Positions 8,426 to 46,246 are shown, counted from the stretch's first letter. The stretch is DNA of 64,000 nucleotides from Dehalococcoidia bacterium (GCA_965262725.1 OZ253555.1:1408001-1472000), one strand, 5' to 3'. The notes: generated by a model from the sequence alone, not told the origin. Numbers and translations: made by a program.

Positions 8426-9605
8426 CTAGTGTCCTGATTCGTAATAGCGACAGATAACGGGTATGGTGGCACAGCGGGGTTTTGCCCCATGGGGCAGACT
8501 CTGGAGTGTCATGAGCACCCGAATCGGACGGCCGACGGTCGCGATCGTCCTGAGCGACGAGGAGCGTGAGACGCTGGAGCGGTGGGCGCGCCGGCCGACA
8601 TCGGCCCAGGCGCTGGCGCTGCGCTGTCGCATCGTCCTGGCAGCGGCCGAGGGGACATCGAATAAAGCGATCGCCGCGGCGCTCGATTGCCATCCGGTCA
8701 CCGTCGGCAAGTGGCGCCGGCGCTTTGCGCAGGGGCGGCTCGATGGGCTACAGGATGAGCCGCGCCCCGGGGCGCCGCGCACGATCGCCGATGCACAGGT
8801 GGAAGCGGTGATCGTCACGACGCTGGAGGAGCAGCCTCCCAACGCGACGCACTGGTCGACCCGATCGATGGCAGCCGCGGTCGGGATGTCGCAGTCGGCG
8901 ATCTTCAGGATCTGGCGCGCCTTCGGCCTGAAGCCGCACCTCGTGGAGAGCTTCAAGCTGTCGCCCGACCCGCAGTTCATCGACAAGGTGCGCGACGTGG
9001 CCGGGCTCTATCTCAACCCGCCCGACGCGGCGGTTGTGCTGTGCGTGGACGAGAAGACCCAGATCCAGGCACTCGACCGCACCGCGCCGACGGTGCCGAT
9101 GATGCCCGGCGTCCCCGCCCGCCAGACGCACGACTACATCCGTCACGGCACGACGAACCTCTACGCGGCGCTCGATGTCGCCTCGGGATGCGTGATCACG
9201 GAGATGACCCCCCGGCACCGGGCTCGGGAGTTCCAGCAGTTCCTCGCCCTCATCGACCAAAGCGTTCCCCATGAGCTGGCGGTGCATGTCGTGCTCGACA
9301 ACGTCTCCACGCACCGCACGCCCGCCATCCAGCGCTGGCTCCAGCGCCATCCCCGCTTCACCTTCCATTTCACGCCGACCTACAGCTCCTGGATGAACCT
9401 CGTGGAGCGCTGGTTTGCAGAGCTCACCAGCAAGTGGCTCCGGCGCGGCACGCACCATAGCGTCCCTGATCTGATCCGCTCAGTGGAGATGTGGGTCGCC
9501 AGCTGGAACGAGAATCCGAGGCCCTTCATCTGGCACAAGTCCGCGGACCAGATCCTTGACAACCTCGCCGGATATCTAGAGCGCATCCCTGAATCGGGAC
9601 ACTAG
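8426..9605 (+). mobile_element. IS630-family insertion sequence (complete)
   Basis: Ends CTAGTGTCCTGATTC ... GAATCGGGACACTAG are inverted repeats; both ends lie in CTAG. Confidence 0.93.
8511..9605 (+). CDS. IS630-family transposase
   Basis: HTH N-terminus; DDE motifs CVDEK, VLDN, WMNLVERWF. Stop TAG lies in the terminal CTAG. Confidence 0.95.
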   Translation: MSTRIGRPTVAIVLSDEERETLERWARRPTSAQALALRCRIVLAAAEGTSNKAIAAALDCHPVTVGKWRRRFAQGRLDGLQDEPRPGAPRTIADAQVEAVIVTTLEEQPPNATHWSTRSMAAAVGMSQSAIFRIWRAFGLKPHLVESFKLSPDPQFIDKVRDVAGLYLNPPDAAVVLCVDEKTQIQALDRTAPTVPMMPGVPARQTHDYIRHGTTNLYAALDVASGCVITEMTPRHRAREFQQFLALIDQSVPHELAVHVVLDNVSTHRTPAIQRWLQRHPRFTFHFTPTYSSWMNLVERWFAELTSKWLRRGTHHSVPDLIRSVEMWVASWNENPRPFIWHKSADQILDNLAGYLERIPESGH

Positions 9606-10813
9606 GGGTTCTCTGAACAGGTCGCCGCGTCGTTACTGGAGCACATGCACACTCCGATGACTATATGCGATCATGGCACTCCTCCGGGAAAGGGGAGCGC
9701 TGCCATGCATCAGCCGACATTCGCGAGAGTCGAGTTCGAGCGGGATGGCTACAAGACGCGCCGCCAGAAGTTCCTCGAACGGCTGGATGGCCTCGTCCCG
9801 TGGCAGAGGTTCGAAGCAGCCATCGAGCCCCACTACCCGAAACCGGGCCGCGGGCGGAGGCCCTACCCGCTCTCCGTGATGCTGCGCATCCATACCGTGC
9901 AACTCTGCTACAACCTCAGCGACCCCGGCATGGAGGATCTGCTCCACGAGGCCGAGTCGGTGCGAGCCTTCTGCTTCCTCACGCTCTCCGAGCCCATCCC
10001 CGACGAGACGACGATCCTCAACTTCCGGCACCTGCTCGAGCGCCACTCCCTGGGTAGCAGGATCCTCCAACTCATCAACGAGCACCTCACGAGCAAGGGA
10101 TTGAAGCTGAGCGAGGGCAGCATCGTGGATGCGACCATCATCTCGGCGCCATCGTCGACGAAGAATCGCGGGCGGGCGCGGGACCCGGAGATGCATCAGA
10201 CCAAGAAGGGGAAACAGTGGTTCTTCGGGATGAAGCTGCACATCGGCGCCGACAGGGATACTGGACTGGTCCACAACTTCACGACCACGCCTGCGAACGT
10301 GTCGGACGTGTCTGAGACGCACCGCCTGCTGCACGGCGAGGAAGCCGAGGTCTACGGCGACGCCGGGTACCGGGGCGTGCAGAAGAGACCCGAGAACGCG
10401 GACTCCAGGGTCAAGGACTGGAACGTGGCGATGCGCCCGGGCCTCCGGCGTGCGCTCGACCCGGAGAGTCCTGAGGCCGTCGAGGAGAAGCGGAAGGCAT
10501 CGGTGCGAGCGCTGGTGGAGCACCCGTTCTACAGCGTGAAGCGGCGCTTCGGCTACGCCAAGGTGCGGTACCGGGGTCTCTTCAAGAACCACGAGCGGTG
10601 TGCGGTCTTGCTGGGGTTCCACAACCTGCTCACCGCGAAGCCGCACCGTGCCTGACCGTGGGTGGAGTGCGCCCTCCCCGCCCCACACGGGGCGAGGAGG
10701 GGAGCCACAGGGGCCCGCGAGGGGGCGGATATGACCACTGTCATCGGGAATCCGCCTGAGAGCGCCTGACCGCGGCGAAACTGGGTCGCTAGACCCACCT
10801 GATCAGACTTGCC
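9606..10813 (+). mobile_element. IS5-family insertion sequence
   Basis: Imperfect TIRs GGGTTCTCTGAACAGGT / ACCTGATCAGACTTGCC, flanked by CTAG at 9602-9605 and 10814-10817. Confidence 0.88.
9705..10655 (+). CDS. IS5-family transposase
   Basis: PDETTILNFRHLLE, VDATII, RDPEMHQTKKGKQWFFGMKLHIG, YGDAGY, RALVEHPF. Confidence 0.95.
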   Translation: MHQPTFARVEFERDGYKTRRQKFLERLDGLVPWQRFEAAIEPHYPKPGRGRRPYPLSVMLRIHTVQLCYNLSDPGMEDLLHEAESVRAFCFLTLSEPIPDETTILNFRHLLERHSLGSRILQLINEHLTSKGLKLSEGSIVDATIISAPSSTKNRGRARDPEMHQTKKGKQWFFGMKLHIGADRDTGLVHNFTTTPANVSDVSETHRLLHGEEAEVYGDAGYRGVQKRPENADSRVKDWNVAMRPGLRRALDPESPEAVEEKRKASVRALVEHPFYSVKRRFGYAKVRYRGLFKNHERCAVLLGFHNLLTAKPHRA

Positions 10814-11074
10814 CTAGACGCCCGCGTCGTCTCCGCGCTCGAGGGCGGAGAGGATCGCCTCCGCCAGCGCACGCGCCGAGTCCGGCTCCAGTTCGACGGC
10901 GAGCCGGGCGGAGGGCCCCTCGCCGTCGTTCACGAAGTCGATGTTGAGGGCGTGCTCCAAGCGGACGTGGAAAGGGTGATCGTAGGTGACGCTGGCGTGG
11001 CTGAGGTCGAACCACCCGTCGTGCCGCTTGCCCGCGCCCGAGACGGCAACCCGCTCCAGGATCATCGTGCACAT
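10814..11074 (-). CDS. Small conserved protein (DUF6295-like)
   Basis: MCTMILE...GWF...YDHPFH...LNIDF pattern; AGGGAGG RBS upstream; directly follows the dienelactone hydrolase. Confidence 0.7.
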   Translation of the reverse strand: MCTMILERVAVSGAGKRHDGWFDLSHASVTYDHPFHVRLEHALNIDFVNDGEGPSARLAVELEPDSARALAEAILSALERGDDAGV

Positions 11075-11869: not shown

Positions 11870-12104
11870 TCGGAGACCTCCTCGCCGCCCCGCGGGGCGC
11901 GTGATTCCAGCCGCGGCATCGTGGCGTCATGCGATTGCGCGGCTCCGCAAGCCTACAGCCGCAGAGGCGCCACGGGGGCTCCACCCCCGGCGGGATTTGT
12001 CCGACGGGTCGATCGTCACCGGGACGTGAGTTGCGGCTACCACGGCCCGCGCGACTTCTCGGGGTGAATCCGAAGCCGACGCCGGCCCGTCGGCCCAGCG
12101 GTGC

Positions 12105-12956
12105 TCAGCTGGCTTGCTGACCCGTCGCGGGCTCCGCCAGGAAGGAACGCAGCTCCGCGGACCACAACTCCGGCGCCACCCGCCAGTTGAACTGGTGCGT
12201 GGTCGGCGGCCGGATGCCGCGTGCGGCCGGGATCGCCGCGAGGAGTCGCTCGTGCGCGCGCCCGAGCGCGCTCGACGTGCCGTGAATGACCATCGTCGGC
12301 GCCTTGACCAGCGGTGCCCTCTCCCACAGCGGGTACCGCGCCAGCGCCAGCGTCGATGCATCCTGTCCGGTCACGCCGTCGGGGCCGGGCGTCGCGCTGC
12401 TCACGGCGGAGAGGAAGCGGCGCCGGGTCAGCAGTGACACGTCATCGGGGTCGCTGGCCTCTCGAAGCGTCACGTCACGAGAGCGAGCCCACATGGTGAC
12501 GAGATGGCGTCCGTCGGGACGCTCCTCGATACCGTGCTCGCGCTCGAGCACGTCGACGCGGCCGGGGCGATTCCAGTTGAAGCACTCCTCCAGTACGAGC
12601 CTGTCGACGCGGTCGGGCCAGCTCGCCGCGACCTCAAGCGCGGTCAGTGAACTCGTCAGGGAGCCCAATACATGTGCCCGATCGATCTCGAGACCGTCGA
12701 GAAGCCAGGTGACTGCGCGTGCGTACTGTCGGACCTCGGTGTAGGCGATCGGCGGCGGATCCGATGCACCGAAGCCCGGCTGGGACATCGCGATCACCCG
12801 AAAGTCGTCGGCGAGAAGCGGGATCGCGTCCTGGAAGGTCGTGCAGGAACTCGGCGCCGGGTGCAGCAGGAGCAGCACTGGCCCGCTGCCGCCCTCCATG
12901 TACTCGATGTTTCCGTCCGGGCCGTGCACGAAGCCGCGGCGCACGTAGTCAGTCAT
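12105..12956 (-). CDS. Alpha/beta hydrolase fold protein
   Basis: GPVLLLLH, PGFGASD, PDRVDRLVL; non-canonical elbow GSLTS. Confidence 0.85.
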   Translation of the reverse strand: MTDYVRRGFVHGPDGNIEYMEGGSGPVLLLLHPAPSSCTTFQDAIPLLADDFRVIAMSQPGFGASDPPPIAYTEVRQYARAVTWLLDGLEIDRAHVLGSLTSSLTALEVAASWPDRVDRLVLEECFNWNRPGRVDVLEREHGIEERPDGRHLVTMWARSRDVTLREASDPDDVSLLTRRRFLSAVSSATPGPDGVTGQDASTLALARYPLWERAPLVKAPTMVIHGTSSALGRAHERLLAAIPAARGIRPPTTHQFNWRVAPELWSAELRSFLAEPATGQQAS

Positions 12957-13124
12957 TATTCTTTCCTCGCCTTCCGTGCCGTGTGCGCATGATATGCGAG
13001 CCGCCTCGTCGCGCGGACCCGGCGTCCGGCAGGCCCGGACCGCGATCGCGGCCAGCCCGGGGCGCGCTCCGCGGGTGCCGGCGAAGACTGTCCGGTGCAG
13101 AGCGCCGCCCGGGCGTCTTCGCCC

Positions 13125-13763
13125 TCAGACCTTGCGTATCAGCATCACGCCGTCGCGGGTGGGGAGCAGGACCTGCGCGACCCGATCGTCCGCGGCGACG
13201 TGCGCGTTGAAGGCGGCCATCATCTGTCCGGACTTCGACTCCGGATCCAGCACACGCCCGTTCAACAGCACATTGTCCACCGCGATGATCCCGTCATCTG
13301 CGATGAGCTCCATCGCGGCCTCGTAGTAGTCGACGTACGGTTCTTTGTCGGCATCGATGAAGACCAGATCGAACGGGCCCTCCAGGGTCGTGAGCGTCTC
13401 GGCGGCCGGCCCGATCCGGATCTCGATCTTGTGGCCGTCCGGTCCCCGGTCGGCGTGCCCGCGGGCGATGTCGGCGGTCGCAGGGTCGATCTCGCAGGTG
13501 ACCAGCCGGCCGTCCTCGGGCAGCGCGGCAGCCATCATCTGCGCGCTGAAGCCGGTGAAGCAGCCCAGCTCGAGGATGTGCTTCGCACCCGACGCCCAGA
13601 CCAGGAGCTGCAGCAGCCCACCCTCGATCGGTCCCGAGAGCATCAGCGAGTGCTCCATCTCCTCCAGGGTGAAGCGGTGGAGTTCTGCCAGATGCGGCGC
13701 GAGCGGCGTCGTGTGCTGTCGCGCGTACTCTTCGACTTGCTCCAGCACAAGAGTCAGCATCAT
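13125..13763 (-). CDS. SAM-dependent O-methyltransferase (CCoAOMT/MdmC-like)
   Basis: ILELGCFTGFS, FDLVFIDADKEPY, DNVL; GGAGGA RBS before ATG 13763. Confidence 0.92.
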   Translation of the reverse strand: MMLTLVLEQVEEYARQHTTPLAPHLAELHRFTLEEMEHSLMLSGPIEGGLLQLLVWASGAKHILELGCFTGFSAQMMAAALPEDGRLVTCEIDPATADIARGHADRGPDGHKIEIRIGPAAETLTTLEGPFDLVFIDADKEPYVDYYEAAMELIADDGIIAVDNVLLNGRVLDPESKSGQMMAAFNAHVAADDRVAQVLLPTRDGVMLIRKV

Positions 13764-14038
13764 GTCCTCCGGCTTCGTTCGGACTCTGGATGGCCACGGC
13801 AGAGGTGAAGATGCGCCAGAGCGAGGCGGCACCGTCTAGGTGCCGCCTCGCCGCGCTGCGTCCGCGCGGGTCGTTCGTCCGGATCCCCGAAGGGCGGACA
13901 CGTTCCGGGAGCTGATCCGGTGGTCGCCACCTCACCCAGCCTCCGCTTCACCGTCCCGGCCATCAATCTACAGGCGCACAAACCGAGCTGGTCACGGTTC
14001 CCCCGGTCGAGGGCATCCGCCGCTAGGGTGGGTGGGCC

Positions 14039-14428
14039 TTGACGGCTCGCAAGGCTGTGCTGCTTGACGCCGACATGACCCTCTGGCGGATTGCGCACCA
14101 GCCCGCCCAAGTCTGGCAGTCCGTCCTTGCAGACTTGGGTATCGAGGTTCCTCCGCGGAGCGGGGTGGCGGCCCTGGCCTGCAGCCGGGACGTCCTCGCC
14201 CCCGGTTGGCGGGCGCTGGAGCGCGAACGCGGGGACCGCTGCCCGGCACCTGCGCAGGGGGATCCTGGATGCTCCGGGGCGCACGAGGCAGGCGGCCTCG
14301 GGGGCTTGATCCGGTTCCTGGGTGGTCCGCCGTGGGTTGCGGCCCCCGGACCCACGAGGAGGCGAGGAGCGACTCGGCCCGGCTCCAGTCGTCCGGCGTG
14401 TGCGATCGGCGTCTGGCCAAGGGGATGA
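14039..14428 (+). pseudogene. Degraded HAD-family hydrolase fragment
   Basis: N-terminal AVLLDADMTL (HAD motif I) followed by sequence that no longer resembles a HAD protein. Confidence 0.4.
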
Positions 14429-14684
14429 GCGGGGCTGACGTGATCGCGCCTAACGCTCATGCTGGTCGTGGAGGAGCGAGCATGTGTCGATCGCCAGGGT
14501 CATTGATCCACGCGTCGCCACGGTCATTAGACCACCCGGGACGCCGGTAGGCGGCTTGATATCAGTGAGCGTCTAGTGTCCTGAATTGGAAATGCGATTG
14601 AGATATCCGGTGAGGTTGGTGTGTCCCGAAGTCGAAGGGCGGGTGACGTGATGACGTAACCGGTCTGGAGACATGCTCGTCGTT

Positions 14685-16104
14685 GAGTAGCGTCCCAGCA
14701 AGTGGTGTCACAGGCGGGGAGACGGTCTCCGCAGGGGGACCTACTACCGACCACGGTGCCCATGCAGGTGGACGTAAGAGACCACCGCATCATCCTTCAC
14801 GAAGTTATGACGAACGTGGAGGAGGACGACGGTGGTCAGAGAGAGCGTGGACGTGTTGGAACTGCTCCGCAAGCAGGCATCGGGAGCTGACCTCGATTTC
14901 CTGCGCGAAGCGGTGGCTGTGCTCGCCGAGGCGGTCATGGACCAGGAGGTCTCGGCGCAGGTCGGCGCCGGCTACGGTGAGCGCAGCGAGATGCGCACCA
15001 CCCGGCGCAACGGCTACAGGCAAAGACGCTGGGACACGCGGGTGGGCAGCATCGACCTGCAGATCCCGAAGCTCCGCCAGGGGTCCTACTTCCCGGCGCT
15101 GCTCGAGCCCCGGCGCCGCTCAGAGCGCGCCCTGCTAGCCGTCGTCCAGCAGGCGTACGTGGAGGGCGTCTCCACACGCCGCGTCGACGACCTCGTGCGC
15201 TCGCTCGGCTGCGAGGGCATCTCCAAGAGCCAGGTCTCGCGTATCTGCTCGGAGCTCGACACGGTCGTCACAAGTTTCCTCGGCCGGCCCCTGGACTCCG
15301 GCCCCTACCGATACCTCTGGCTCGACGCGCTCACCCAGCGGGTGCGCGAGGAGGGCCGCATCGCCCAGGTGAGCGTCGTCGTCGCCACCGCGGTCAACGT
15401 GGAGGGGAAGCGCGAGGTGCTGGGCATCGACGTCGGTACCAGCGAGGACGGGGCCTTCTGGCTGGCATTTCTCCGCGGCCTCGTAGCACGAGGGCTCTCC
15501 GGCGTGGAGCTGGTGACCTCCGACGCCCACCAGGGCCTGAGGGGAGCGATCGCGACCGTCTTCGGCGGCGCCTCCTGGCAGCGCTGCCGTACCCACTTCA
15601 TGCGGAACCTGCTCACACGCGTGCCGAAGAGCGCCGAGGCGCTGGTGGCGACGACCGTGCGCACCATCTACCAGCAGCCCTCGGCCTCCGAGGTGCACGC
15701 CCAGCACACGCGGGTCGTGGAGCAGCTCGGTGCGCGCTTCCCGCAGGCCGCGGCGATGCTCGCCGACGCCGCGGAGGAGATCCTGGCGTTCACGGCCTTC
15801 CCGGTGGCGCACTGGCGTCAGGTCTGGTCGAACAACCCCCAGGAGCGCCTCAACAAGGAGATCCGCCGGCGCACCAACGTCGTCGGCATCTTCCCCAACC
15901 GCTCAGCGGTCATCCGGCTCATCGGTGCGGTGCTCTCCGAGCAGCACGACGAGTGGGCCGTGGGGCGGCGCTACATGACGATGATGACGCTGCTCGCCCC
16001 GCCGGGGAGTGAGCTCACGCCGGGCAAGGAGGTGCTGCTGCAGGCTGCCGGCTAAGAACTGATAAGGATGGTGCGCAGTGACACCACTTGCCGGGACGTG
16101 ACCC
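14685..16104 (+). mobile_element. IS256-family insertion sequence
   Basis: 27-nt imperfect TIRs GAGTAGCGTCCCAGCAAGTGGTGTCAC / GTGACACCACTTGCCGGGACGTGACCC; GTCGTT duplicated on both sides; absent from intron copy 2. Confidence 0.92.
14832..16055 (+). CDS. IS256-family transposase
   Basis: RNGYRQR, GVSTRRV, YLWLDA, SDAHQGL, WQRCRTHF, SNNPQERLNKEIRRR. Confidence 0.95.
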   Translation: MVRESVDVLELLRKQASGADLDFLREAVAVLAEAVMDQEVSAQVGAGYGERSEMRTTRRNGYRQRRWDTRVGSIDLQIPKLRQGSYFPALLEPRRRSERALLAVVQQAYVEGVSTRRVDDLVRSLGCEGISKSQVSRICSELDTVVTSFLGRPLDSGPYRYLWLDALTQRVREEGRIAQVSVVVATAVNVEGKREVLGIDVGTSEDGAFWLAFLRGLVARGLSGVELVTSDAHQGLRGAIATVFGGASWQRCRTHFMRNLLTRVPKSAEALVATTVRTIYQQPSASEVHAQHTRVVEQLGARFPQAAAMLADAAEEILAFTAFPVAHWRQVWSNNPQERLNKEIRRRTNVVGIFPNRSAVIRLIGAVLSEQHDEWAVGRRYMTMMTLLAPPGSELTPGKEVLLQAAG

Positions 16105-16616
16105 GTCGTTGCCAGCCGGTGCGAGTCCGGCACGGGTAACTGTCAGGAGGCCCGTTAGCAGGTCGGCGGCGCGGACGGGAAACGGTCCACGTCGAAGCCC
16201 GACGTCAAGAGCCCTATCAGGGGGAGCAACCAAGCGGTCCGCAGCATCAAGCGAAGCCTGCCGCGTCGTTAACGGATAGTGGAGGAGCCGAGCCCGGCAA
16301 TTCAGGGCGAAGGCCATGGACGAGGTGAAGATCCTGAATGCGCGTTGCGCTGCAGCCTCAAGGAACCTCCCGGCGTAAGGGGCGTGGAACGTTTGGAAGG
16401 TAGCGACGGGAACGGGAGAAGCCCTCCCCGGCCCGGCACCCTGCGAGATGGTGTCGGAGCGAGGTGCCCTATAACCGGTCAAAGCCGGGAAGTGGGCAGC
16501 TAGCCGGAAGGGTGACGGAGGGGGTCGTAGTACCGCTTGAGCCGGACGGACAACACAACCGCCGGTGATGGGAAGGACCCCTGCTTTGCTCACGCGTGGG
16601 GAGTAGGGATGAATCG

Positions 16617-18816
16617 GTGAGTGCCCAAGCGGCTAACTCCATCCAAGACAAGGTCCGAACACTACAACGCACGCTTTACCGGGCGGCCAAGGCCGACCCC
16701 AATAGACGCTTTCATGCGCTCTACGACAAGGTTTATCGCAGAGACATTCTGGAGCGCGCGTGGGAGCAGGTGCGTCGCAATCGCGGCGCAGCCGGTATCG
16801 ACGGCGTCACGCTCGCCGAGGTCGAGCGCTACGGCGTGGAGCGCCTGCTGGATGAACTGGCCACGGAACTGAAGGAGGGAAGATACCGGGTGCAGCCGAG
16901 CCGCCGGGTCTGGATACCCAAGCCCGGTCGGTCGGAAGAGCGCCCGCTCTCGATTCCTTCGGTCCGCGACCGCATCGTGCAGGCGTCGCTGAAGCTCGTG
17001 ACGGAGCCGGTCTTCGAGGCCGACTTCCTGCCATGCAGCTTCGGCTTCCGCCCGAAGCGTTCGGCCCATGACGCCCTGCAGGTCCTCATTGACGAGGCGT
17101 GGCGGGGCAGGCGGTGGGTAGTGGAGACGGACATCGCCTCGTGTTTCGAGTCGATACCGCGTGCGTCCGGAAGTCGAAGGGGTGGTGACGTGATGACGTG
17201 ACCGGTCCGGAGACATGCTCGTTGCTGCCAGCCGGTGAGAGTCCGGCACGGGTAACTGTCAGGAGGCCCGTTAGCAGGTCGGCGGCGTGGACGGGAAACG
17301 GTCTGCGTCGAAGCCCGACGTCAAGAGCCCTATGAGGGGGAGCAAACGTGCGGTCCGCAGCATGACGCGAAGTCTGCCGCGCCGTGAGACTCGCCTGTCT
17401 ATTGACAGGACCAAGGAGGAGCCGAGCCCGGGTGGTCAGGGCGAAGGCCATGGACGAGGTGAAGATCCTGGAATGCAGCCTCAAGAAACCTCCCGGCGTA
17501 TGGGACGTGGAACGTACGGAAGGTAGCGACGGGAACCGGAGAAGCCCTCCCCGGCCCGGCACCCTGTGAGAGGGCGTCGGAGCGAGGCGTCCTATAACCG
17601 GTCAGAGCCGGGAAGTGGACAGCCAGCCGGAAGGGTGGCGGAGGGGGTCGTAGTACCGCTGGAGCCGGACGGACAACATAACCGCCGGTGATGGGAAGGA
17701 CCCCTACTTTGTCCGTGCATGTTGCTGGGGGTGTGGACTGGTGAGTGCCCCTCGGGGCTAGCAACCACTTGGTAGGGTTCGAGGCTCTCCGCACATGCTG
17801 TACCGGCTGGCCAAGGCACGACCCACGTTGTGGGGAGCGCTGCATGCCATCTGGTGAAGGGCATCGGTGAGCCGGATGAGGGAGAACCTCACGTCCGGTT
17901 CGATGTGGCAGGGGCTGGAGACGGACGCTGCTATGGCCGTGGAGTTGGGCACCACCGGGAAACCGGCTTGGAACTGATGCGCCACCGCCTACGGCTCGCA
18001 CCGCGCCAGCCCCTGACCCTACACGACCGTCTGATGACGGCCGTCGAGGAACGGATATGCGACCGCAATCTCCTGAAGCTGGTACGGGCGATGCTGCGTG
18101 CCGGTGTGATGGAGTCGGGGGTCGTGCAGCACAGCGCGACGGGTACGCCGCAGGGCGGGGTGATGTCCCCGCTGCTGGCCAATGTCTACCTGCACCGGTT
18201 GGACCGGGACTGGGAGGCGAAGGGTGATGGCGTGCTGGTGCGCTATGCGGATGACCTCGTGGTGCTCTGCCGGAGCCGGGAGGAAGCGGAGCGGGCGTTG
18301 GCCCTGCTGCGTGACCTGCTGGGTGAGCTCGGACTGGAGCTCAAGGCGGAGAAGACGCGCATCGTGCACCTGCGGGAGGGAGGCGAGGGGCTGGAGTTCC
18401 TCGGCTTCGAGCATCGCTGGGTACGTGCGAAGCGCAACAAGAATATCCAGTTCCTCGCACGCTGGCCCTCACGGCGAGCGATGCAGCGGGCGCGGGACCG
18501 CATCCGTGAAATCACGGCGCGGTTGCGTCTGCTGCTGAGTCCCCGGCAGGTCGTGGAGGAAGTCAATCGCTACCTCCGCGGCTGGATGAGCTACTTCCGC
18601 TACGGCAACTCGGCGAGGGCGTTCGACGTCCTGCACTGGTTTGCCATGTGGAGACTCAAACTCTGGCTGGGGAAGCGGTTGCGTTGGCGGCGACGCCATC
18701 GCGGGCACCCGTTTCCCGTCGCCGACCGTCTGGGGCTCATCTCGCTAGCTGGACAGCGCGTCGTGGCACCACGGCCATATCGACCGTGGCGGGGCACCCC
18801 GCATGCCGCCCGGTGA
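16617..18816 (+). CDS. ltrA: Group II intron reverse transcriptase/maturase, split: join(16617..17160,18023..18816), ~445 aa, no endonuclease domain
   Basis: Exon 1 has GAAGIDG, RPLSIPSVRDRIVQ, SFGFRPKRSAHDA and ends TCG ATA CCG C. Exon 2 begins AC GAC CGT and has GTPQGGVMSPLLAN, RYADD, FLGF and domain X. The splice restores FESIPHDRLM in frame. Confidence 0.92.
17161..18022 (+). ncRNA. Group II intron B (inner, ORF-less, 862 nt), copy 1
   Basis: 5' GTGCG; domains I-III homologous to intron A; DIV keeps only ORF remnants; DV GAGCCGGATGAGGGAGAACCTCACGTCCGGTTC; 3' CCCTGACCCTAC. Confidence 0.92.
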
Positions 18817-19124
18817 AGGGCATCGGTGAGCCGGATGAGGGAAAACCTCACGTCCGGTTCGAGGCGGCAGGGGCTGGAGACGGACGATGCTACGGCTGTG
18901 GAGATGGGCGCCACCGGGAAACCGGCCTGGCAATATGCGCCACCGCCTACGGCTCGCACCGCGCCAGCCCCTGACCCTACTCAAGGATCTGGTCGGTGGT
19001 CTTGTGCGAGATGAAGCGCATCCGGTGCTCGTTCCAGTTGCGACCCAAGCCTCCACTGGGCGGACCAAGCCTGCGAGGCTCGGTGCGATTGTTTTCAGCA
19101 TTTGCAACTCGGGACACTAGCGCG

Positions 19125-19898
19125 TCAATCACCTCCCGTCTGCGCCTCGAGCAGGGCGCGGTGCGGCGAGAGCCGCTGGCGGTAGCTATCGCCCTCGATC
19201 ACGATCTGGTAGCTGGCGTTGGCGAGGCGGTCGAGGGCGCTGTTGCCGAGGATCGGGTCGTCGAAGAGACCCAGCCATTCCTCCACGGCGCGGTTCGAGG
19301 TGATGACGAAGCTGGAGCTGCGGTGGCGCCCGATGACCAGCTCGTAGAGGTCGATGGACTGCTGCGCGCTGAGGCGATGGAGCCCGAGGTCGTCGAGGAT
19401 GAGCAGGTCGGGGGCGAGGAAGCTTCGGAAGACCTTCTCGGCCGAGTGGTCGACGCGGGCCTGCGCCATCTCGCGGAAGTAGTGGTCGGCCGGGGCGAAG
19501 CGGACGCTGCGTCCGGAGCGGACGGCTGAGTAGCCGAGCGCCTGGGCTAAGAAGCTCTTGCCGACGCCGACGGGGCCGACGAGCAGGACGTGCTCGCGGC
19601 GGTCGAGGAAGTGCAGCGAGAAGGCGGCGTCGAGCAGGCGGCGGTCGAGCCGGATGGCGGCCGCCCAGTCGAAGTCCTCGAGGCGGCAGAGCTGCTCGAA
19701 GCCGGCCTGGCGCAGGCGCAGCTCCAACCGCCCGTGGTCGCGGCGGCTCACCTCGTCGACGAGCAGGATCTGCAGGAAGTCCGCGTAGTCGAGGTGGTCG
19801 CGCCGCGCGAGGGCGATGCGCTCGGGCAGGGTGTCGAGCATACGGCCGAGCTTGAGGCGCTTGAGCAGCGGGCGGAGGTCTGAGGTGGTGGCGGTCAT
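19125..19898 (-). CDS. istB: IS21 helper ATPase IstB
   Basis: LEDFDW, Walker A GPVGVGKS, LLILDDLG, ITSN, LDRL; ATGA overlap with istA. Confidence 0.93.
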   Translation of the reverse strand: MTATTSDLRPLLKRLKLGRMLDTLPERIALARRDHLDYADFLQILLVDEVSRRDHGRLELRLRQAGFEQLCRLEDFDWAAAIRLDRRLLDAAFSLHFLDRREHVLLVGPVGVGKSFLAQALGYSAVRSGRSVRFAPADHYFREMAQARVDHSAEKVFRSFLAPDLLILDDLGLHRLSAQQSIDLYELVIGRHRSSSFVITSNRAVEEWLGLFDDPILGNSALDRLANASYQIVIEGDSYRQRLSPHRALLEAQTGGD

Positions 19899-21475
19899 CG
19901 TGGTGCTCCTGTCGGGGTCTGCGTGCGGGACTGGGCGAAGACGGAGCCCGAGCGGGCGAAGCGCCCCGGAGGCGGCGGCAGCTCGGGCTGGTCTGGGGTG
20001 CTCTCCTGGTCGAGGGCGCGGACGAGGATGCGCTCGAGGCGGCGCACGTCGATGAGGTCGACCTCGAGCGCGCGGCGGCAGGCGGCGTCGAGGCGGTCCG
20101 GGGAGTAGCGCTCGGCGAGGCGCAGCAGCTTGTGGCCCTGCCGCAGCTTCGCCCAGGGCAGGGAGCCCTCGAAGAGACGCTCGGCGTAGGCGCCCACGGC
20201 CTCCCCCAGCTCGGCGGCGCGGCGCTGTATCCAGTCGGGCGCCCGCCTGGTGTAGGGGGTGAGCTCGGCCGGGTAGTCGTTCGGGTCGGTGGCGCGGCCG
20301 CCCCGGCGCTGGCGCGGGTGGACCTTGATGAGCTGACCGCGGTGGTAGATGCGCACCAGCTTCGAGCCGAGCTGCACCTCGACCTTCTGGCGGGGCGGGC
20401 AGGCCATGGACGGCACCGAGTACAGAGCGTACTGGCAGGCGATGTGGTGGTCCGGGTGGACCGTGGCCGTCCGCCAGTCGGGGACCTCGTAGGGCTCGCC
20501 GTCCCAGGGAGCGAGCAGAGGGAGCTCCTCCTTCAGGAAGACCTCGAGCGGGCGCCGGCGTGTCGTGCCGTGGATGCGCTGCCCCGCCACCTCGAGGCAC
20601 CAGCTGCGGGCGGCGGAGCGCAGGTCGACGACGTCCCGGAAGTCGCCGCCCTTGAAGAGGCGCTCGCGCACGTAGGGGATGCTGCGTTCGACGCGCGGCT
20701 TGTCGCGGGGATGACGCACGCGCGCGGGGTCGGTGATGAAGCCTCTGTGGCGGGCGTACTCGAGGAAGCCCCGCGTGAAGCGCGGGTGCAGCGCGTCGGC
20801 CCCGGCGACGGCGGCCGGGAAGTTATCGATGACGAGGTAGCGCGGCACGCCCCCGAAGAAGGCCCAGGCCTCCTCCAGGCCCTCGATCACGGCGTCCAGC
20901 TTCTGGCTGGTGGTGGGCCACACAAAGCAGTGGCGGGAGTAGCGCCAGACGACGACCAGCGCCCACACCGCGCGCCGGCGGCCGCTCTCGGGGTCCCGGA
21001 TGAAGCCGAGGCGGCCGAAGTCCATCTCCGCCACCTCGCCCGGCGGCCCGTCGTCCATGCGCACGGTCGACGGCAGCCGGTGGCGCCAGCCGCGGCGCCG
21101 GATGAAACGCCGCAGCGTGGTGTAGGAGACCTCGCAGCCTCGTCCGGCGAGGAGCTCCTGGATGCGCGTCAGTTGCAGGCGGTCGGTCTCAAGCCAGCGC
21201 TCGATCTGCTCCGCCCAGGGCGAGAGCAGCTCCTCGCTCGGCGCCTCGACCTGCCGCGGGCCGGAGAGGCTCAGCGTCGCCAGCGCGGCGAGCTGCTCCT
21301 CACTCGGCTCGGGACCGCCCGGCGTGAGGCCGGCCGCCTCGGCCGCCTCGACGTAGCGGCGCACCGTCACGCGCGATAGCCCCGTGCCGCTGGCGATGCG
21401 GCGCTGGCTGAGCCCCGCCTGCCAGCGTCGAATGATCTCCTGGATCTCCACCCCGTGTACCTCCCGGTAGGCCAT
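19895..21475 (-). CDS. istA: IS21 transposase IstA
   Basis: N-terminal HTH, PGEVAEMDFG, YLVIDN, PRDKPRVER; start MAYREV with GGAGGGAG RBS. Confidence 0.93.
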   Translation of the reverse strand: MAYREVHGVEIQEIIRRWQAGLSQRRIASGTGLSRVTVRRYVEAAEAAGLTPGGPEPSEEQLAALATLSLSGPRQVEAPSEELLSPWAEQIERWLETDRLQLTRIQELLAGRGCEVSYTTLRRFIRRRGWRHRLPSTVRMDDGPPGEVAEMDFGRLGFIRDPESGRRRAVWALVVVWRYSRHCFVWPTTSQKLDAVIEGLEEAWAFFGGVPRYLVIDNFPAAVAGADALHPRFTRGFLEYARHRGFITDPARVRHPRDKPRVERSIPYVRERLFKGGDFRDVVDLRSAARSWCLEVAGQRIHGTTRRRPLEVFLKEELPLLAPWDGEPYEVPDWRTATVHPDHHIACQYALYSVPSMACPPRQKVEVQLGSKLVRIYHRGQLIKVHPRQRRGGRATDPNDYPAELTPYTRRAPDWIQRRAAELGEAVGAYAERLFEGSLPWAKLRQGHKLLRLAERYSPDRLDAACRRALEVDLIDVRRLERILVRALDQESTPDQPELPPPPGRFARSGSVFAQSRTQTPTGAPR

Positions 21476-21633
21476 CGCTGCTCCCTCCGCTGGGGATGCA
21501 GGCGATGGTGGCCGTACCGGCGACCCGGGCGGGCAGGAGTCCCTGACGGGGTGGATCAATGACCCTGGCGAAGTGGATCAATGACCCTGGCGATCTGGCG
21601 ATTTCGTGGTCTATAGACCTTGGCGATTCACAC

Positions 21634-38379: not shown

Positions 38380-40505
38380 GTCGTTCCCTTCGCACTCGCG
38401 AGGCGGCAGGGCCGCTCGCCCTCCCCGAAGGGTAGTCGCCCCCCGCCGAGGCGGGGTGCCGCTGCCGCGCGAACGGCTCCCCGGAGCCCGCGCGTCGGTG
38501 GAGGTCGGGCGCGGCCACGGGGGATCTGCCGGCGTGCGTGGGCCCCGGCGCCACTCCCCTCCGGCGCGCCGGGACGCGCGTGAACTTCGGAGCCCGAACC
38601 GCCCCCGGTGCGCGCGTCGGCAACGCGACCGCGACGACGGCGCCGCGAGGCGGCCGTCCTGCCGGGGACGTGGGCGTCGAGGGGGGCCTGCAGCTCCTCG
38701 TGGCGCGGCCCCCGCTCGGGGCAGGGGAGACGCGACAGCGTCGGGGCGATCCCGACATCGCGCCCGCGAGGAAGGCGCCGGGGGCCGTGCGACCGCCTCC
38801 TCGACATGGAGCAGGGCGCCGGCCGCGCGGTCCGGCCGTACCCGCGGGTCGCCGTGATCGCCCCTCCCGCGAACCGCAGCCGCTGCCTCGTGCAGGCGCG
38901 ACCCGGGTCGGGCGGCGTCGCTCCCGGCGCGGGGCCGGCTCAGTCCGCGGCGCTCGTCCCGCCCGGGCAGCTGACGGCGACCGACCGGCCGGTGACGGCG
39001 TACGCCACGACCGGCGATGAAGGGCACGTGTCCGGCACGCCGGCCTCCGCGCTCCGCAACCCGGCCACGTGGCGAGGCCTCGATCGCGAGGCGTACGGTG
39101 GCCCCGTGTAGCCGGGGAACGGGCCGTGGCATGGCGCTCATTGCGAGCATCTGCGATCGCACCACCGGGCGGCCGCTCACCTGCGTGGCGGACGGCGGCA
39201 TCGCCGCGCCGTCTGCCACTACAACCGTCCCGCGCGACGTGGCGCGGCTCCGGCGCCGCCGGCCGCGGACCGTGGAGGTGATCGGCGGCATCCCGCGCCC
39301 GGGCATCGCCACGATGGCGACGGCGCGCTTCACGGCGCGGCTCGGGAGCGATCCCGACCTCTGCATCGAGGGCGTGGCGCCGTACGTGCGCGACGGCGGC
39401 TACCCGATCGGTCCGCCGCCGCCGGAGCCATCCACCGAGGCGAGACCGCCAGCGTCTCCTCGCGCTCGAACGCCCCCGGTCCAGGGGGGCGACCGCCGCC
39501 GTTGACCCGCATAGCGCGGGAGAGCCCCGCACCCGGACGGTGCCGGGAGCGAGGCGCGCCTCGAGCGGCGCGGGGGCATCTCCTCGCGTCGCCGGCCCGG
39601 GCGGAGGACGCCGTCGGGTCGCGCGGCCCGCCCGCCGCAGGCCGTGGCGGACACGCGTGCTTCAACGTGCGGGTCGCCGGGGACCGGACCCGCGGGCGGT
39701 CGACGGCGAACTCCCGGAGGACGGCCTCGCCGCCCGCGCTGACGACGGCGCCGCCCGATGCTCGCCCGGCCCGCGGGACCGTCGCCGGGGACGCAGGCGC
39801 CGACCCGGGCGCGGAGGCTGCCCTCGCGGCCGGGTCGTGGCCGGGAACCGGCGGAGCCGTCGCGAAGAGGTCGGGACGAGGCTCCGACGCGCCCACCGCT
39901 CGAGTGGGCGCCGGAGCGGGAGCAGCAGGGCGCGCTCGCAAGAGCGGCGCGCCGGACGGGAGCTCGGGGAGCATCGCCGGATGCGGCGGTGTTCCCTGCC
40001 GCCGTGATGGGCGCGGCGTGAACGTGGAGTATCGGACCACGGCCTCGGGCGCAGTACCGAGGATCGACCTGAGCACCCGCACGCTGATCCGAACCGCGGA
40101 CAGCGCCGGAAGCGGAACGTGGTGCCCACGAGACGAGGCCGAACGGGCGGGAGTGGTGCCCGGCGTGACTCGCGTACCGACGGGGGATCGGTTGCGCGCG
40201 TGTACGGAAAAAGAACATATGATCCGCGCTCAAATCCTGCTCACGATCCGCTCCGACGCTACTCACACGCCAGGGACGCCGCATGTTGCCTGGTGCCGCT
40301 GCGGGTCGACACCGGCGACCTGCTGACGCCTCGGACACGCGAGCAGGAGCGGGCCTCCGGCCGCGTGATTGTCCTCTGAGCAATCCCTGAGCACGCCGGT
40401 TCGTAGGGTCCGTCGCGCAACACGTGCGTTTGTCGGTATCGCCGCTCCGGAGGAGCAGAGAAACCGACGCGGAGCGCTCATCCGGGACACCCGCGGCAGG
40501 CGGGG

Positions 40506-40919
40506 TGTCGATCGCCAGGGTCATTGAGCCACGCGTCGCCACGGTCATTGGACCACCCGGGACGCCGGTAGGCGGCTTGATATCAGTGAGCGTCTAGCGC
40601 GTCAATCACCTCCCGTCTGCGCCTCGAGCAGGGCGCGGTGCGGCGAGAGCCGCTGGCGGTAGCTATCGCCCTCGATCACGATCTGGTAGCTGGCGTTGGC
40701 GAGGCGGTCGAGGGCGCTGTTGCCGAGGATCGGGTCGTCGAAGAGACCCAGCCATTCCTCCACGGCGCGGTTCGAGGTGATGACGAAGCTGGAGCTGCGG
40801 TGGCGCCCGATGACCAGCTCGTAGAGGTCGATGGACTGCTGCGCGCTGAGGCGATGGAGCCCGAGGTCGTCGAGGATGAGCAGGTCGGGCGCGAGGAAGC
40901 TTCGGAAGACCTTCTCGGC
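40506..40919 (-). mobile_element. Truncated second copy of the IS21 element (right end + istB 3' part)
   Basis: Near-identical to 14485-14576 + 19121-19442, with a single unoccupied CTAG. Confidence 0.9.
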
Positions 40920-42884: not shown

Positions 42885-43189
42885 CTAGTGTCCCGAGTTG
42901 CAAATGCTGAAAACAATCGCACCGAGCCTCGCAGGCCTGGTCCGCTCAGTGGAGGCTTGGGTCGCAACTGGAAACGAGCACCGGAGGCGCTTCATCTGGC
43001 ACAAGTCCGCGGACCAGATCTTTGAGTAGGGTCAGGGGCTGGCGCGGTGCGAGCCGTAGGCGGTGGCGCATATTGCCAGGCCGGTTTCCCGGTGGCGCCC
43101 ATCTCCACAGCCGTAGCATCGTCCGTCTCCAGCCCCTGCCGCCTCGAACCGGACGTGAGGTTTTCCCTCATCCGGCTCACCGATGCCCT

Positions 43190-45389
43190 TCACCGGGCGG
43201 CATGCGGGGTGCCCCGCCACGGTCGATATGGCCGTGGTGCCACGACGCGCTGTCCAGCTAGCGAGATGAGCCCCAGACGGTCGGCGACGGGAAACGGGTG
43301 CCCGCGATGGCGTCGCCGCCAACGCAACCGCTTCCCCAGCCAGAGTTTGAGTCTCCACATGGCAAACCAGTGCAGGACGTCGAACGCCCTCGCCGAGTTG
43401 CCGTAGCGGAAGTAGCTCATCCAGCCGCGGAGGTAGCGATTGACTTCCTCCACGACCTGCCGGGGACTCAGCAGCAGACGCAACCGCGCCGTGATTTCAC
43501 GGATGCGGTCCCGCGCCCGCTGCATCGCTCGCCGTGAGGGCCAGCGTGCGAGGAACTGGATATTCTTGTTGCGCTTCGCACGTACCCAGCGATGCTCGAA
43601 GCCGAGGAACTCCAGCCCCTCGCCTCCCTCCCGCAGGTGCACGATGCGCGTCTTCTCCGCCTTGAGCTCCAGTCCGAGCTCACCCAGCAGGTCACGCAGC
43701 AGGGCCAACGCCCGCTCCGCTTCCTCCCGGCTCCGGCAGAGCACCACGAGGTCATCCGCATAGCGCACCAGCACGCCATCACCCTTCGCCTCCCAGTCCC
43801 GGTCCAACCGGTGCAGGTAGACATTGGCCAGCAGCGGGGACATCACCCCGCCCTGCGGCGTACCCGTCGCGCTGTGCTGCACGACCCCCGACTCCATCAC
43901 ACCGGCACGCAGCATCGCCCGTACCAGCTTCAGGAGATTGCGGTCGCATATCCGTTCCTCGACGGCCGTCATCAGACGGTCGTGTAGGGTCAGGGGCTGG
44001 CGCGGTGCGAGCCGTAGGCGGTGGCGCATCAGTTCCAAGCCGGTTTCCCGGTGGTGCCCAACTCCACGGCCATAGCAGCGTCCGTCTCCAGCCCCTGCCA
44101 CATCGAACCGGACGTGAGGTTCTCCCTCATCCGGCTCACCGATGCCCTTCACCAGATGGCATGCAGCGCTCCCCACAACGTGGGTCGTGCCTTGGCCAGC
44201 CGGTACAGCATGTGCGGAGAGCCTCGAACCCTACCAAGTGGTTGCTAGCCCCGAGGGGCACTCACCAGTCCACACCCCCAGCAACATGCACGGACAAAGT
44301 AGGGGTCCTTCCCATCACCGGCGGTTATGTTGTCCGTCCGGCTCCAGCGGTACTACGACCCCCTCCGCCACCCTTCCGGCTGGCTGTCCACTTCCCGGCT
44401 CTGACCGGTTATAGGACGCCTCGCTCCGACGCCCTCTCACAGGGTGCCGGGCCGGGGAGGGCTTCTCCGGTTCCCGTCGCTACCTTCCGTACGTTCCACG
44501 TCCCATACGCCGGGAGGTTTCTTGAGGCTGCATTCCAGGATCTTCACCTCGTCCATGGCCTTCGCCCTGACCACCCGGGCTCGGCTCCTCCTTGGTCCTG
44601 TCAATAGACAGGCGAGTCTCACGGCGCGGCAGACTTCGCGTCATGCTGCGGACCGCACGTTTGCTCCCCCTCATAGGGCTCTTGACGTCGGGCTTCGACG
44701 CAGACCGTTTCCCGTCCACGCCGCCGACCTGCTAACGGGCCTCCTGACAGTTACCCGTGCCGGACTCTCACCGGCTGGCAGCAACGAGCATGTCTCCGGA
44801 CCGGTCACGTCATCACGTCACCACCCCTTCGACTTCCGGACGCACGCGGTATCGACTCGAAACACGAGGCGATGTCCGTCTCCACTACCCACCGCCTGCC
44901 CCGCCACGCCTCGTCAATGAGGACCTGCAGGGCGTCATGGGCCGAACGCTTCGGGCGGAAGCCGAAGCTGCATGGCAGGAAGTCGGCCTCGAAGACCGGC
45001 TCCGTCACGAGCTTCAGCGACGCCTGCACGATGCGGTCGCGGACCGAAGGAATCGAGAGCGGGCGCTCTTCCGACCGACCGGGCTTGGGTATCCAGACCC
45101 GGCGGCTCGGCTGCACCCGGTATCTTCCCTCCTTCAGTTCCGTGGCCAGTTCATCCAGCAGGCGCTCCACGCCGTAGCGCTCGACCTCGGCGAGCGTGAC
45201 GCCGTCGATACCGGCTGCGCCGCGATTGCGACGCACCTGCTCCCACGCGCGCTCCAGAATGTCTCTGCGATAAACCTTGTCGTAGAGCGCATGAAAGCGT
45301 CTATTGGGGTCGGCCTTGGCCGCCCGGTAAAGCGTGCGTTGTAGTGTTCGGACCTTGTCTTGGATGGAGTTAGCCGCTTGGGCACTCAC
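43190..45389 (-). CDS. ltrA: Group II intron RT/maturase, split: complement(join(43190..43983,44846..45389))
   Basis: ORF-track translations of both halves are identical to copy 1. Confidence 0.92.
43984..44845 (-). ncRNA. Group II intron B (inner, ORF-less), copy 2
   Basis: Reverse complement of 17161-18022. Confidence 0.92.
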
Positions 45390-46003
45390 CGATTCATCCC
45401 TACTCCCCACGCGTGAGCAAAGCAGGGGTCCTTCCCATCACCGGCGGTTGTGTTGTCCGTCCGGCTCAAGCGGTACTACGACCCCCTCCGTCACCCTTCC
45501 GGCTAGCTGCCCACTTCCCGGCTTTGACCGGTTATAGGGCACCTCGCTCCGACACCATCTCGCAGGGTGCCGGGCCGGGGAGGGCTTCTCCCGTTCCCGT
45601 CGCTACCTTCCAAACGTTCCACGCCCCTTACGCCGGGAGGTTCCTTGAGGCTGCAGCGCAACGCGCATTCAGGATCTTCACCTCGTCCATGGCCTTCGCC
45701 CTGAATTGCCGGGCTCGGCTCCTCCACTATCCGTTAACGACGCGGCAGGCTTCGCTTGATGCTGCGGACCGCTTGGTTGCTCCCCCTGATAGGGCTCTTG
45801 ACGTCGGGCTTCGACGTGGACCGTTTCCCGTCCGCGCCGCCGACCTGCTAACGGGCCTCCTGACAGTTACCCGTGCCGGACTCGCACCGGCTGGCAACGA
45901 CGAGCATGTCTCCAGACCGGTTACGTCATCACGTCACCCGCCCTTCGACTTCGGGACACACCAACCTCACCGGATATCTCAATCGCATTTCCAATTCAGG
46001 ACA

Positions 46004-46187
46004 CTAGGGCTATATGAAATTTTCCATACCAGTGATTACGAAGCTCCTCTGTTTCTTCAGCACCGGCGACGTATTTTGCAACACGCGCACACATTTCTTC
46101 AGGAGTCTCGATTACGTCCCCTGTATCGTGGTTCTTCCGTAGGTAACGCTTTTCGAGTACAGTGCGCGCGTTGTCTGTAAGTTCCAA
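46004..46187 (-). pseudogene. N-terminal fragment of a ribonucleotide reductase (NrdJ-like)
   Basis: MELTDNARTVLEKRYLRK...IETPEEMCARVAKYVA; AT-rich; cut at the CTAG that holds the MITE and IS5. Confidence 0.7.
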
Positions 46188-46217: not shown

Positions 46218-46246
46218 AGTATATCACATTGCAAAGTGTAAGTCAA
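46218..46246 (-). promoter_or_regulatory. Near-consensus sigma70 promoter
   Basis: TTGACT-17 nt-TATACT with extended -10 TG, then GGAGGGAGAGG RBS and TTG start. Confidence 0.75.

Follow-up and report, generated by a model that had tools for sequence, protein, structure and literature searches.

A window of 64,000 nucleotides from a Dehalococcoidia bacterium (GCA_965262725.1, OZ253555.1:1408001-1472000), analyzed as a whole and compared with the rest of its genome (one contig of 3,674,403 bp, in which the placing of identical repeats depends on the assembly), carries two copies of a miniature inverted-repeat transposable element (MITE) of the IS630 family loaded with a twintron, i.e., an outer group II intron (intron A) interrupted by an inner one (intron B). 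Copy 1 occupies 14573-19120 on the plus strand (4548 bp) and copy 2 occupies 42885-46007 on the minus strand (3123 bp). The two are inverted repeats of each other, with arms of 113 nt and 2930 nt that are 100% complementary and an arm of 89 nt that is 98% complementary; copy 1 equals copy 2 plus 1418 nt at 14686-16103, and it is only this IS256-family insertion that makes it longer. The 12-nt end motif CTAGTGTCCYGA is found at six places in the window where chance would give 0.34, a count reached in none of 100 shuffles. These matches are the paired ends of copy 1, of copy 2, and of a full-length IS630-family element of 1180 bp on the plus strand (8426-9605), whose 380-aa transposase open reading frame (ORF; 8463-9605) scores 271.6 bits against NCBIfam NF033545 (cutoff 100), contains Pfam DDE_3 and HTH domains, and still has an empty intron homing site at 9559|9560.

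Within copy 1, the MITE arm M46 (14573-14618), which bears the terminal repeat CTAGTGTCCTGA, forms the 5′ exon of intron A and contains both intron-binding sites, IBS2 (TATCCG, 14604-14609) and IBS1 (GGTTG, 14614-14618). Intron A follows at 14619-18980, beginning with GTGTG, ending with CTAC, and measuring 2936 nt once the IS256-family element is subtracted. The latter, present in copy 1 only, is inserted in domain I (roughly 1410 bp, together with 8 bp of target duplication), encodes a transposase at 14832-16055 (Pfam Transposase_mut, E = 9.6e-132), and has eight further full copies in the genome that are 95.6-100% alike. Downstream of it lie the exon-binding sites EBS2 (CGGATA, 16273-16278) and EBS1 (CAATT, 16298-16302), assigned from covariation with the target across four related introns, and then the first half of the intron A protein gene (codons 1-188, 16596-17160), which covers the start of the reverse transcriptase (RT) domain (Pfam RVT_1 in the spliced translation). 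Intron B, 862 nt long and without an ORF, enters this gene at codon 188|189 (17161-18022), after which the rest of the RT domain and the maturase domain continue at 18023-18816 (RVT_1 and GIIM), followed by domain V (18828-18860) and an unusually long domain VI (18866-18976) with its bulged A at 18974. The other MITE arm, M140 (18981-19120), is the 3′ exon and combines an antisense 3′ remnant of an IS630 transposase gene with the second terminal repeat. The corresponding parts of copy 2, all on the minus strand, are M46 at 45962-46007, intron A at 43026-45961, intron B at 43984-44845, and M140 at 42885-43025.

Removal of intron A leaves, as the initial annotation had described, a 186-bp element (46 + 140 bp) with CTAGTGTCCYGA ends, approximately 72% of which is the antisense 3′ end of a transposase gene. 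The final 134 nt of the resident IS630, taken as their reverse complement, align to MITE positions 1-133 with 81% identity, which places the intron antisense to the remnant, again in agreement with the first description. The two twintrons of the window do occupy the same nucleotide of the MITE, and the junction ..GAGGTTG|GTGTG .. CCCTAC|TC.. is identical in all 12 genomic copies of intron A.

A genome-wide search for the reconstructed MITE, counting empty and filled forms, returned 12 copies, seven of them filled (294687, 1183389, the two window copies, 1591280, 2557598, and 3118858) and five empty. Four of the latter are intact (996020, 1986207, 2581930, and 2585217), while the fifth (1979170/1981738) is split elsewhere by another insertion and has an unoccupied intron site. 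The element is 186-187 bp long, has no ORF, is bounded by CTAG at both ends, and matches the IS630 ends in CTAGTGTCCYGA and partly beyond; all 12 copies have one shared internal deletion and both terminal repeats. Empty MITEs thus exist (5 of 12) and intron A was found at no unrelated site, each of its 12 copies lying at this one position (7 in MITEs, 5 in IS630 elements). The proposal that the MITE acts as a landing pad for the twintron therefore holds insofar as the MITE is real and multi-copy, but the pad is not specific to it, because the same twintron sits at the homologous position (IS630 position 1134|1135, window 9559|9560) in 5 of the 14 full-length or partial IS630 copies that keep the site (11910-15780, 548338-553315, 1389970-1395297, 2974406-2978521, and 3131578-3135692). 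Nine IS630 copies are empty, and those of their right ends that are 99.9-100% alike are the same as the filled ones across the 46-nt arm to +4. The landing pad is the right end of the IS630 family, and the MITE merely inherits the site.

Three other full copies of the resident IS630, as well as the 1134-nt body of one filled copy, match it with 100% identity, a sign of recent activity. In the filled IS630 copies the transposase ORF halts at the intron junction, giving 366 instead of 380 aa, so that the last 14-15 codons (the tail after ..ADQIL) are lost; the shortened transposase probably remains functional. A search of 40 relatives did not recover the end that is the MITE's own (positions 134-186), which among the 41 genomes occurs in this one only, whereas the IS630-like elements of those relatives match MITE positions 1-146 or 1-153 only. 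Two of the filled IS630 copies (548338-553315 and 2974406-2978521) are chimeric, with IS630 positions 1-1134 at 99.9-100% identity and an arm past the intron that is of MITE type. Homologous recombination between twintron copies best explains them. Co-conversion of the 5′ exon was considered as their source and judged unlikely, since the entire 46-nt arm is of MITE type, and recombination within the 2.9-kb intron fits better; no reciprocal chimera, with an IS630-type arm on a MITE body, is present in the genome.

Both introns have the hallmarks of group II ribozymes. Each loaded copy gave two Rfam matches to domains D1-D4, at 16113-16249 for intron A (95.3 bits, cutoff 49) and at 17229-17365 for intron B (102.8 bits), plus one D5/D6 match (18826-18893, 41.5 bits, cutoff 40). 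The boundaries are standard, with starts of GTGTG in A and GTGCG in B and a common ..CTAC end, and folding places the bulged A of domain VI 7 nt before the 3′ splice site. A 3′ extension of the B.c.I4 type was considered, as the D5/D6 match stops 87 nt before the 3′ splice site, and rejected when folding gave a single long domain VI. Excision of 17161-18022 restores the RT frame (..CFESIP|HDRLM..) and yields a protein of 452 aa with the Pfam domains RVT_1 and GIIM only; no endonuclease domain was detected by Pfam, and the ORF stops just before domain V. The nearest solved structures are group II intron RTs, with the GsI-IIC RT on top (E = 3e-58). An 86.6% similar homologue from the same genus (G003, 956360-960479) has no intron B and encodes an unbroken 444-aa protein that scores 396.6 bits against TIGR04416 (cutoff 300), and A-like introns occur also in G008 and G018. 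Within the present genome there is in addition family C, with three copies that are 75-86% like A and are located at other targets. With these features intron A is a group II retroelement whose protein lacks an endonuclease domain, and its 12 near-identical copies suggest that it is active. The same genome also has an unrelated family of group II introns, represented by about a dozen copies with unbroken protein genes and a few fragments, the proteins being approximately 38% identical to that of intron A.

Intron B has 28 genomic copies, 13 of them in A (one A holding two in tandem) and 3 in C; the other 12 occupy unrelated sites that have IBS motifs in common. It splits all 15 A-type and C-type protein genes (12 A, 3 C) at codon 188|189, and no unbroken cognate RT gene was found in this genome. 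As B sits in the middle of the RT gene, the intron protein could be made only after B has spliced, and contigs from two public runs (X6 and X8, the X8 contig being about 90% like A) skip exactly the 862 nt of B. B probably stems from a related intron, has the RT gene of A as a homing target, and uses the A protein in trans; it has also reached 12 other sites. Copies of the outer intron are nearly identical to one another, as are those of the inner one, and the composite may move as one unit. One A copy (549500-551223) contains two B introns in direct tandem, the second adjoining the last base of the first. In another case (IS630 copy 380617-382660) intron B rather than A is inserted, antisense, at IS630 position 83/84, with the A site empty. 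The line of dependency originally drawn from IS630 through the MITE and intron A to intron B accordingly becomes a web, in which B splits every A-type and C-type protein gene and has reached 12 other sites, and A shortens the transposase gene of the IS630 copies that it occupies.

Comparison with the 5′ exons of A, B, the G003 homologue, and family C revealed that two loops of domain I, EBS1 and EBS2, covary with the target across the four introns. In intron A, EBS2 CGGATA faces IBS2 TATCCG and EBS1 CAATT faces IBS1 GGTTG, the latter with two G-U pairs; in intron B the pairs are GACTCG with CGAGTC and GTGGT with ACCGC. The G003 homologue combines AGCCA with TGGCT (EBS2/IBS2) and GGAA with TTCC (EBS1/IBS1), and family C combines GAGTCC with GGACTC and ACCC with GGGT. 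Because both loops covary with the target, targeting is evidently encoded in the RNA. The G003 homologue is inserted within an IS256-like transposase gene, and aim at IS630 would thus be a retargeting that is present here and not in G003.

The relative ages of host and passenger indicate the order of events. The MITEs fall into two subfamilies, alpha and beta, which are 5-6% apart and each have filled and empty members, whereas the 12 twintrons have only 3 variable positions in 2937 nt. This disparity argues that the twintron sweep is much younger than the spread of the MITEs, and hence that most filling took place by retrohoming into MITEs already in place. Two of the three twintron variants are each common to MITE and IS630 hosts, and such crossing between host types is what retrohoming predicts.

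Occupancy also seems to vary with replication direction. The 12 ectopic copies of intron B are all co-oriented with the GC skew (p = 0.0005), and their strand switches adjoin the two extremes of that skew, the minimum at 410 kb and the maximum at 2.52 Mb. With replichores defined by these extremes, filled intron A sites are 10 co-oriented to 2 anti-oriented and empty sites 5 to 9 (Fisher p = 0.021). This pattern would fit an endonuclease-less intron that uses the replication fork, as RmInt1 has been shown to do, probably for priming. The nine empty IS630 copies all lie on the plus strand of the contig, in either replichore.

Insertion at CTAG is documented directly by the IS21-family elements of the genome. 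Copy 1 is hosted by such an element (istA and istB, minus strand, 19121-21633, with its short 88-nt end at 14485-14572), having entered a CTAG 88 nt from the IS21 end. In a paralogous IS21 fragment on the plus strand (40505-40893) the sequences on either side of copy 1 meet at a single CTAG (40594-40597), so that comparison of this empty site with the filled one (14573/19120) identifies CTAG as the MITE target. All 52 genomic matches to the end motif lie at a CTAG, a word that is five-fold under-represented (2073 observed, 9903 expected) in this genome of 70.6% G+C. Among 18 IS21 copies, this CTAG is empty in 15, including the one in the window, and occupied in three: by a MITE alone (2585217), by a loaded MITE (copy 1), and by a loaded IS630 (2974405). 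A tree of the IS21 copies places the one that hosts copy 1 among copies without a MITE (support 95/90), apart from the other two hosts, which indicates three independent insertions of IS630 type at one hot spot. Mobilization of the MITE would presumably be provided in trans by an IS630 transposase.

Other elements meet at the same target. A 1212-bp element next to the right end of the resident IS630 (9606-10817) has 17 full copies in the genome, that of the window included, which are 99.4-100% alike, and it adjoins an IS630 or MITE end in 7 of them. An IS110-type identity, with insertion directed at the terminal repeat, was considered for this neighbor and discarded, as it belongs to the IS5 family (Pfam DDE_Tnp_1 and DUF772) and has the same CTAG target. 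An IS1182-like element of 1.9 kb (e.g., genome 1186512-1188435), bearing IS5/IS1182-type transposase domains, adjoins a MITE end in five of six cases and follows a bare CTAG in the sixth. Several transposon families seem to share this rare target and to pile up on each other's ends.

Taken together, these observations make it probable that an endonuclease-less twintron retrohomes to the right end of IS630-family elements, that the MITE inherited this site, and that the twintron spread in a recent sweep. Briefly, intron A RNA would reverse-splice on the strand antisense to the transposase gene, into a sequence located 46 nt in from the right end, guided by pairing of EBS2 CGGATA with TATCCG and of EBS1 CAATT with GGTTG. 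The homing sequence would lie in the part that any deletion derivative must keep beside its terminal repeat, and a 186-bp MITE derived from a related IS630 would for this reason carry the same site. IS630-type transposition into CTAG/TA would have spread the 12 MITEs and the 14 site-bearing IS630 copies, after which the twintron would have swept by retrohoming, mainly where the intron-sense strand is the lagging-strand template.

Several findings weigh against this interpretation. On the side of targeting, the EBS1 pairing of intron A requires its two G-U pairs. As for the host, the MITE shares only 81% identity with the resident IS630, its true parent is absent from this genome, and what links it to IS630 for cross-mobilization is confined to the shared terminal repeats and target. 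Regarding orientation, the sign of the local 200-kb skew gives 8 co-oriented to 4 anti-oriented filled sites against 5 to 9 empty ones (p = 0.24); the replichore borders were taken from the same genome and set after the pattern had been seen, which makes the test post hoc, and the copies are related, so that all orientation tests overstate the evidence. Furthermore, five empty sites are co-oriented and intact and yet unfilled, and scanning 14400-14760, a stretch that covers the upstream MITE arm of copy 1 and its nearest flank, yielded no sigma-70-like promoter.

Part of the twintron spread could instead be DNA transposition, with loaded MITEs of 3.1 kb moved by the IS630 transposase, a possibility that we regard as unlikely but serious. 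Loaded MITEs keep both terminal repeats, with the intron 46 nt from the end. Copy 2 is the same as genome 1183389-1186511 across 3123 nt while the flanks differ on both sides, and these two share an A at MITE position 51 that is present in no empty MITE. Moreover, the only filled sites in the unfavored orientation are two MITEs, copy 2 and 3118858-3126040, each of which has a co-oriented filled partner of the same MITE sequence. The same pattern would nevertheless arise if an empty MITE variant had moved and both copies had been filled later, and the minor leading-strand pathway described for the intron RmInt1 would explain it as well (PMC1802570). The numbers are tiny (two sites), the 5-kb GC skew near copy 2 and 3118858 is too noisy and dominated by the G-richness of the intron itself, and no site was found that is purely empty or loaded without a MITE-only state, the contigs of the public runs breaking at repeats. 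In addition, twintron variants are shared across the two host types, MITE and IS630, and there are filled members in the alpha as well as the beta subfamily, so that retrohoming explains most copies.

A related and rather doubtful idea is that a loaded MITE moves in two ways, by RNA-guided homing in one orientation and by IS630 transposition to any CTAG in either orientation. If true, this would let an endonuclease-less intron reach places and strands that are otherwise inaccessible to it, and the two wrong-orientation filled MITEs with their identical right-orientation partners would be the trace of such movement.

Segmental duplication or homologous recombination of a single loaded element, with neither transposition nor homing, is a very improbable origin for the copies. 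Recombination among copies does occur, as the MITE-type 46-nt arms of the two chimeric IS630 elements attest, and several flanks are common to different elements. These shared flanks, however, are not duplications of host DNA but the ends of other CTAG-sited insertion sequences (IS21, IS5-family, and IS1182-like); the contexts of the 12 loaded elements differ, with homology ending exactly at CTAG, and the intron is precisely what distinguishes filled from empty forms. That the 186-bp unit is scattered debris of decayed IS630 rather than a mobile MITE is hardly credible, for although it has no ORF and is 72% transposase remnant, all 12 copies have a single internal deletion in common and retain both terminal repeats, they fall into two CTAG-bounded subfamilies of 186-187 bp, and presence or absence at CTAG among recently diverged IS21 copies amounts to an insertion event.

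Bacterial group II introns mostly reside in other mobile DNA, and RmInt1 belongs to class IIB3 (class D). IS630-derived MITEs such as the pneumococcal RUP and the cyanobacterial Nezha have no ORF, carry IS630-like terminal repeats, target TA, and are thought to be mobilized in trans; to our knowledge none of them has been reported as a homing site for a group II intron, and a full-text search, which covered few subscription journals, found no report of any MITE in this role. The nearest known system is RmInt1 of Sinorhizobium meliloti, which homes into ISRm2011-2 (IS630-Tc1 family) with a bias for the lagging-strand template (PMC1802570, PMC4238363); strain 1021 has 13 sites, of which 3 are occupied, all on that template (PMC1802570). 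RmInt1 resembles intron A in lacking an endonuclease domain, in having its homing site in a multi-copy element of the IS630 family, in its partial occupancy of intact sites and effect on the host transposon, and perhaps also in its strand bias (PMC1802570, PMC4238363). The two differ in that RmInt1 lies in the sense strand and interrupts the gene, so that the transposase needs splicing, whereas intron A is antisense, cannot be spliced from the transposase message, and removes only the last 14-15 codons. Two further differences are that a MITE derivative accounts for 7 of the 12 occupied sites here and that the intron is a twintron.

The nesting itself has parallels. In TeI3/TeI4 of T. elongatus there is an ORF-less derivative that lies in the protein gene of a related ORF-bearing intron, is mobilized in trans, and outnumbers its driver, the inner introns being mutually identical as here (PMC2882425). 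There, however, the inner intron is located between two start codons, so that protein is possible from unspliced RNA, and two introns with unbroken ORFs are described (PMC2882425), whereas B interrupts the RT domain in 15 of 15 genes, which would make its splicing obligatory. Introns of Methanosarcina acetivorans home site-specifically into other group II introns, the nest acting as a lasting homing site; the flanking exons have no coding ORF and the review passage on them describes no transposon or MITE host (PMC4424553). Against this background, the present genome offers a countable natural experiment in layered genetic parasitism, with 26 homing sites of which 12 are filled, an inner intron whose 28 copies split every cognate RT gene, and nesting up to four levels deep (IS21, MITE, intron A, and intron B or IS256). 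The RmInt1 model would be extended in three respects: a retroelement can have its homing sites multiplied by a non-autonomous DNA transposon, the target lies so near the terminal repeat that deletion derivatives retain it, and occupancy appears to follow replication direction. Although it overturns no principle, the system allows a direct test of cooperation between DNA transposition and retrohoming.

Some minor features of the loaded MITEs may be added. Two of them (1591280-1597035 and 2557598-2563353) measure 5756 bp each and contain an extra insertion of about 2.6 kb at different twintron positions, a size that fits an IS21-family element. In the unique flank of copy 2, a sigma-70-like promoter match on the minus strand (46218-46246, 10 of 12 positions with TG, 0.3 expected by chance) lies approximately 210 nt upstream of the MITE, reads into the twintron, and could drive copy 2.

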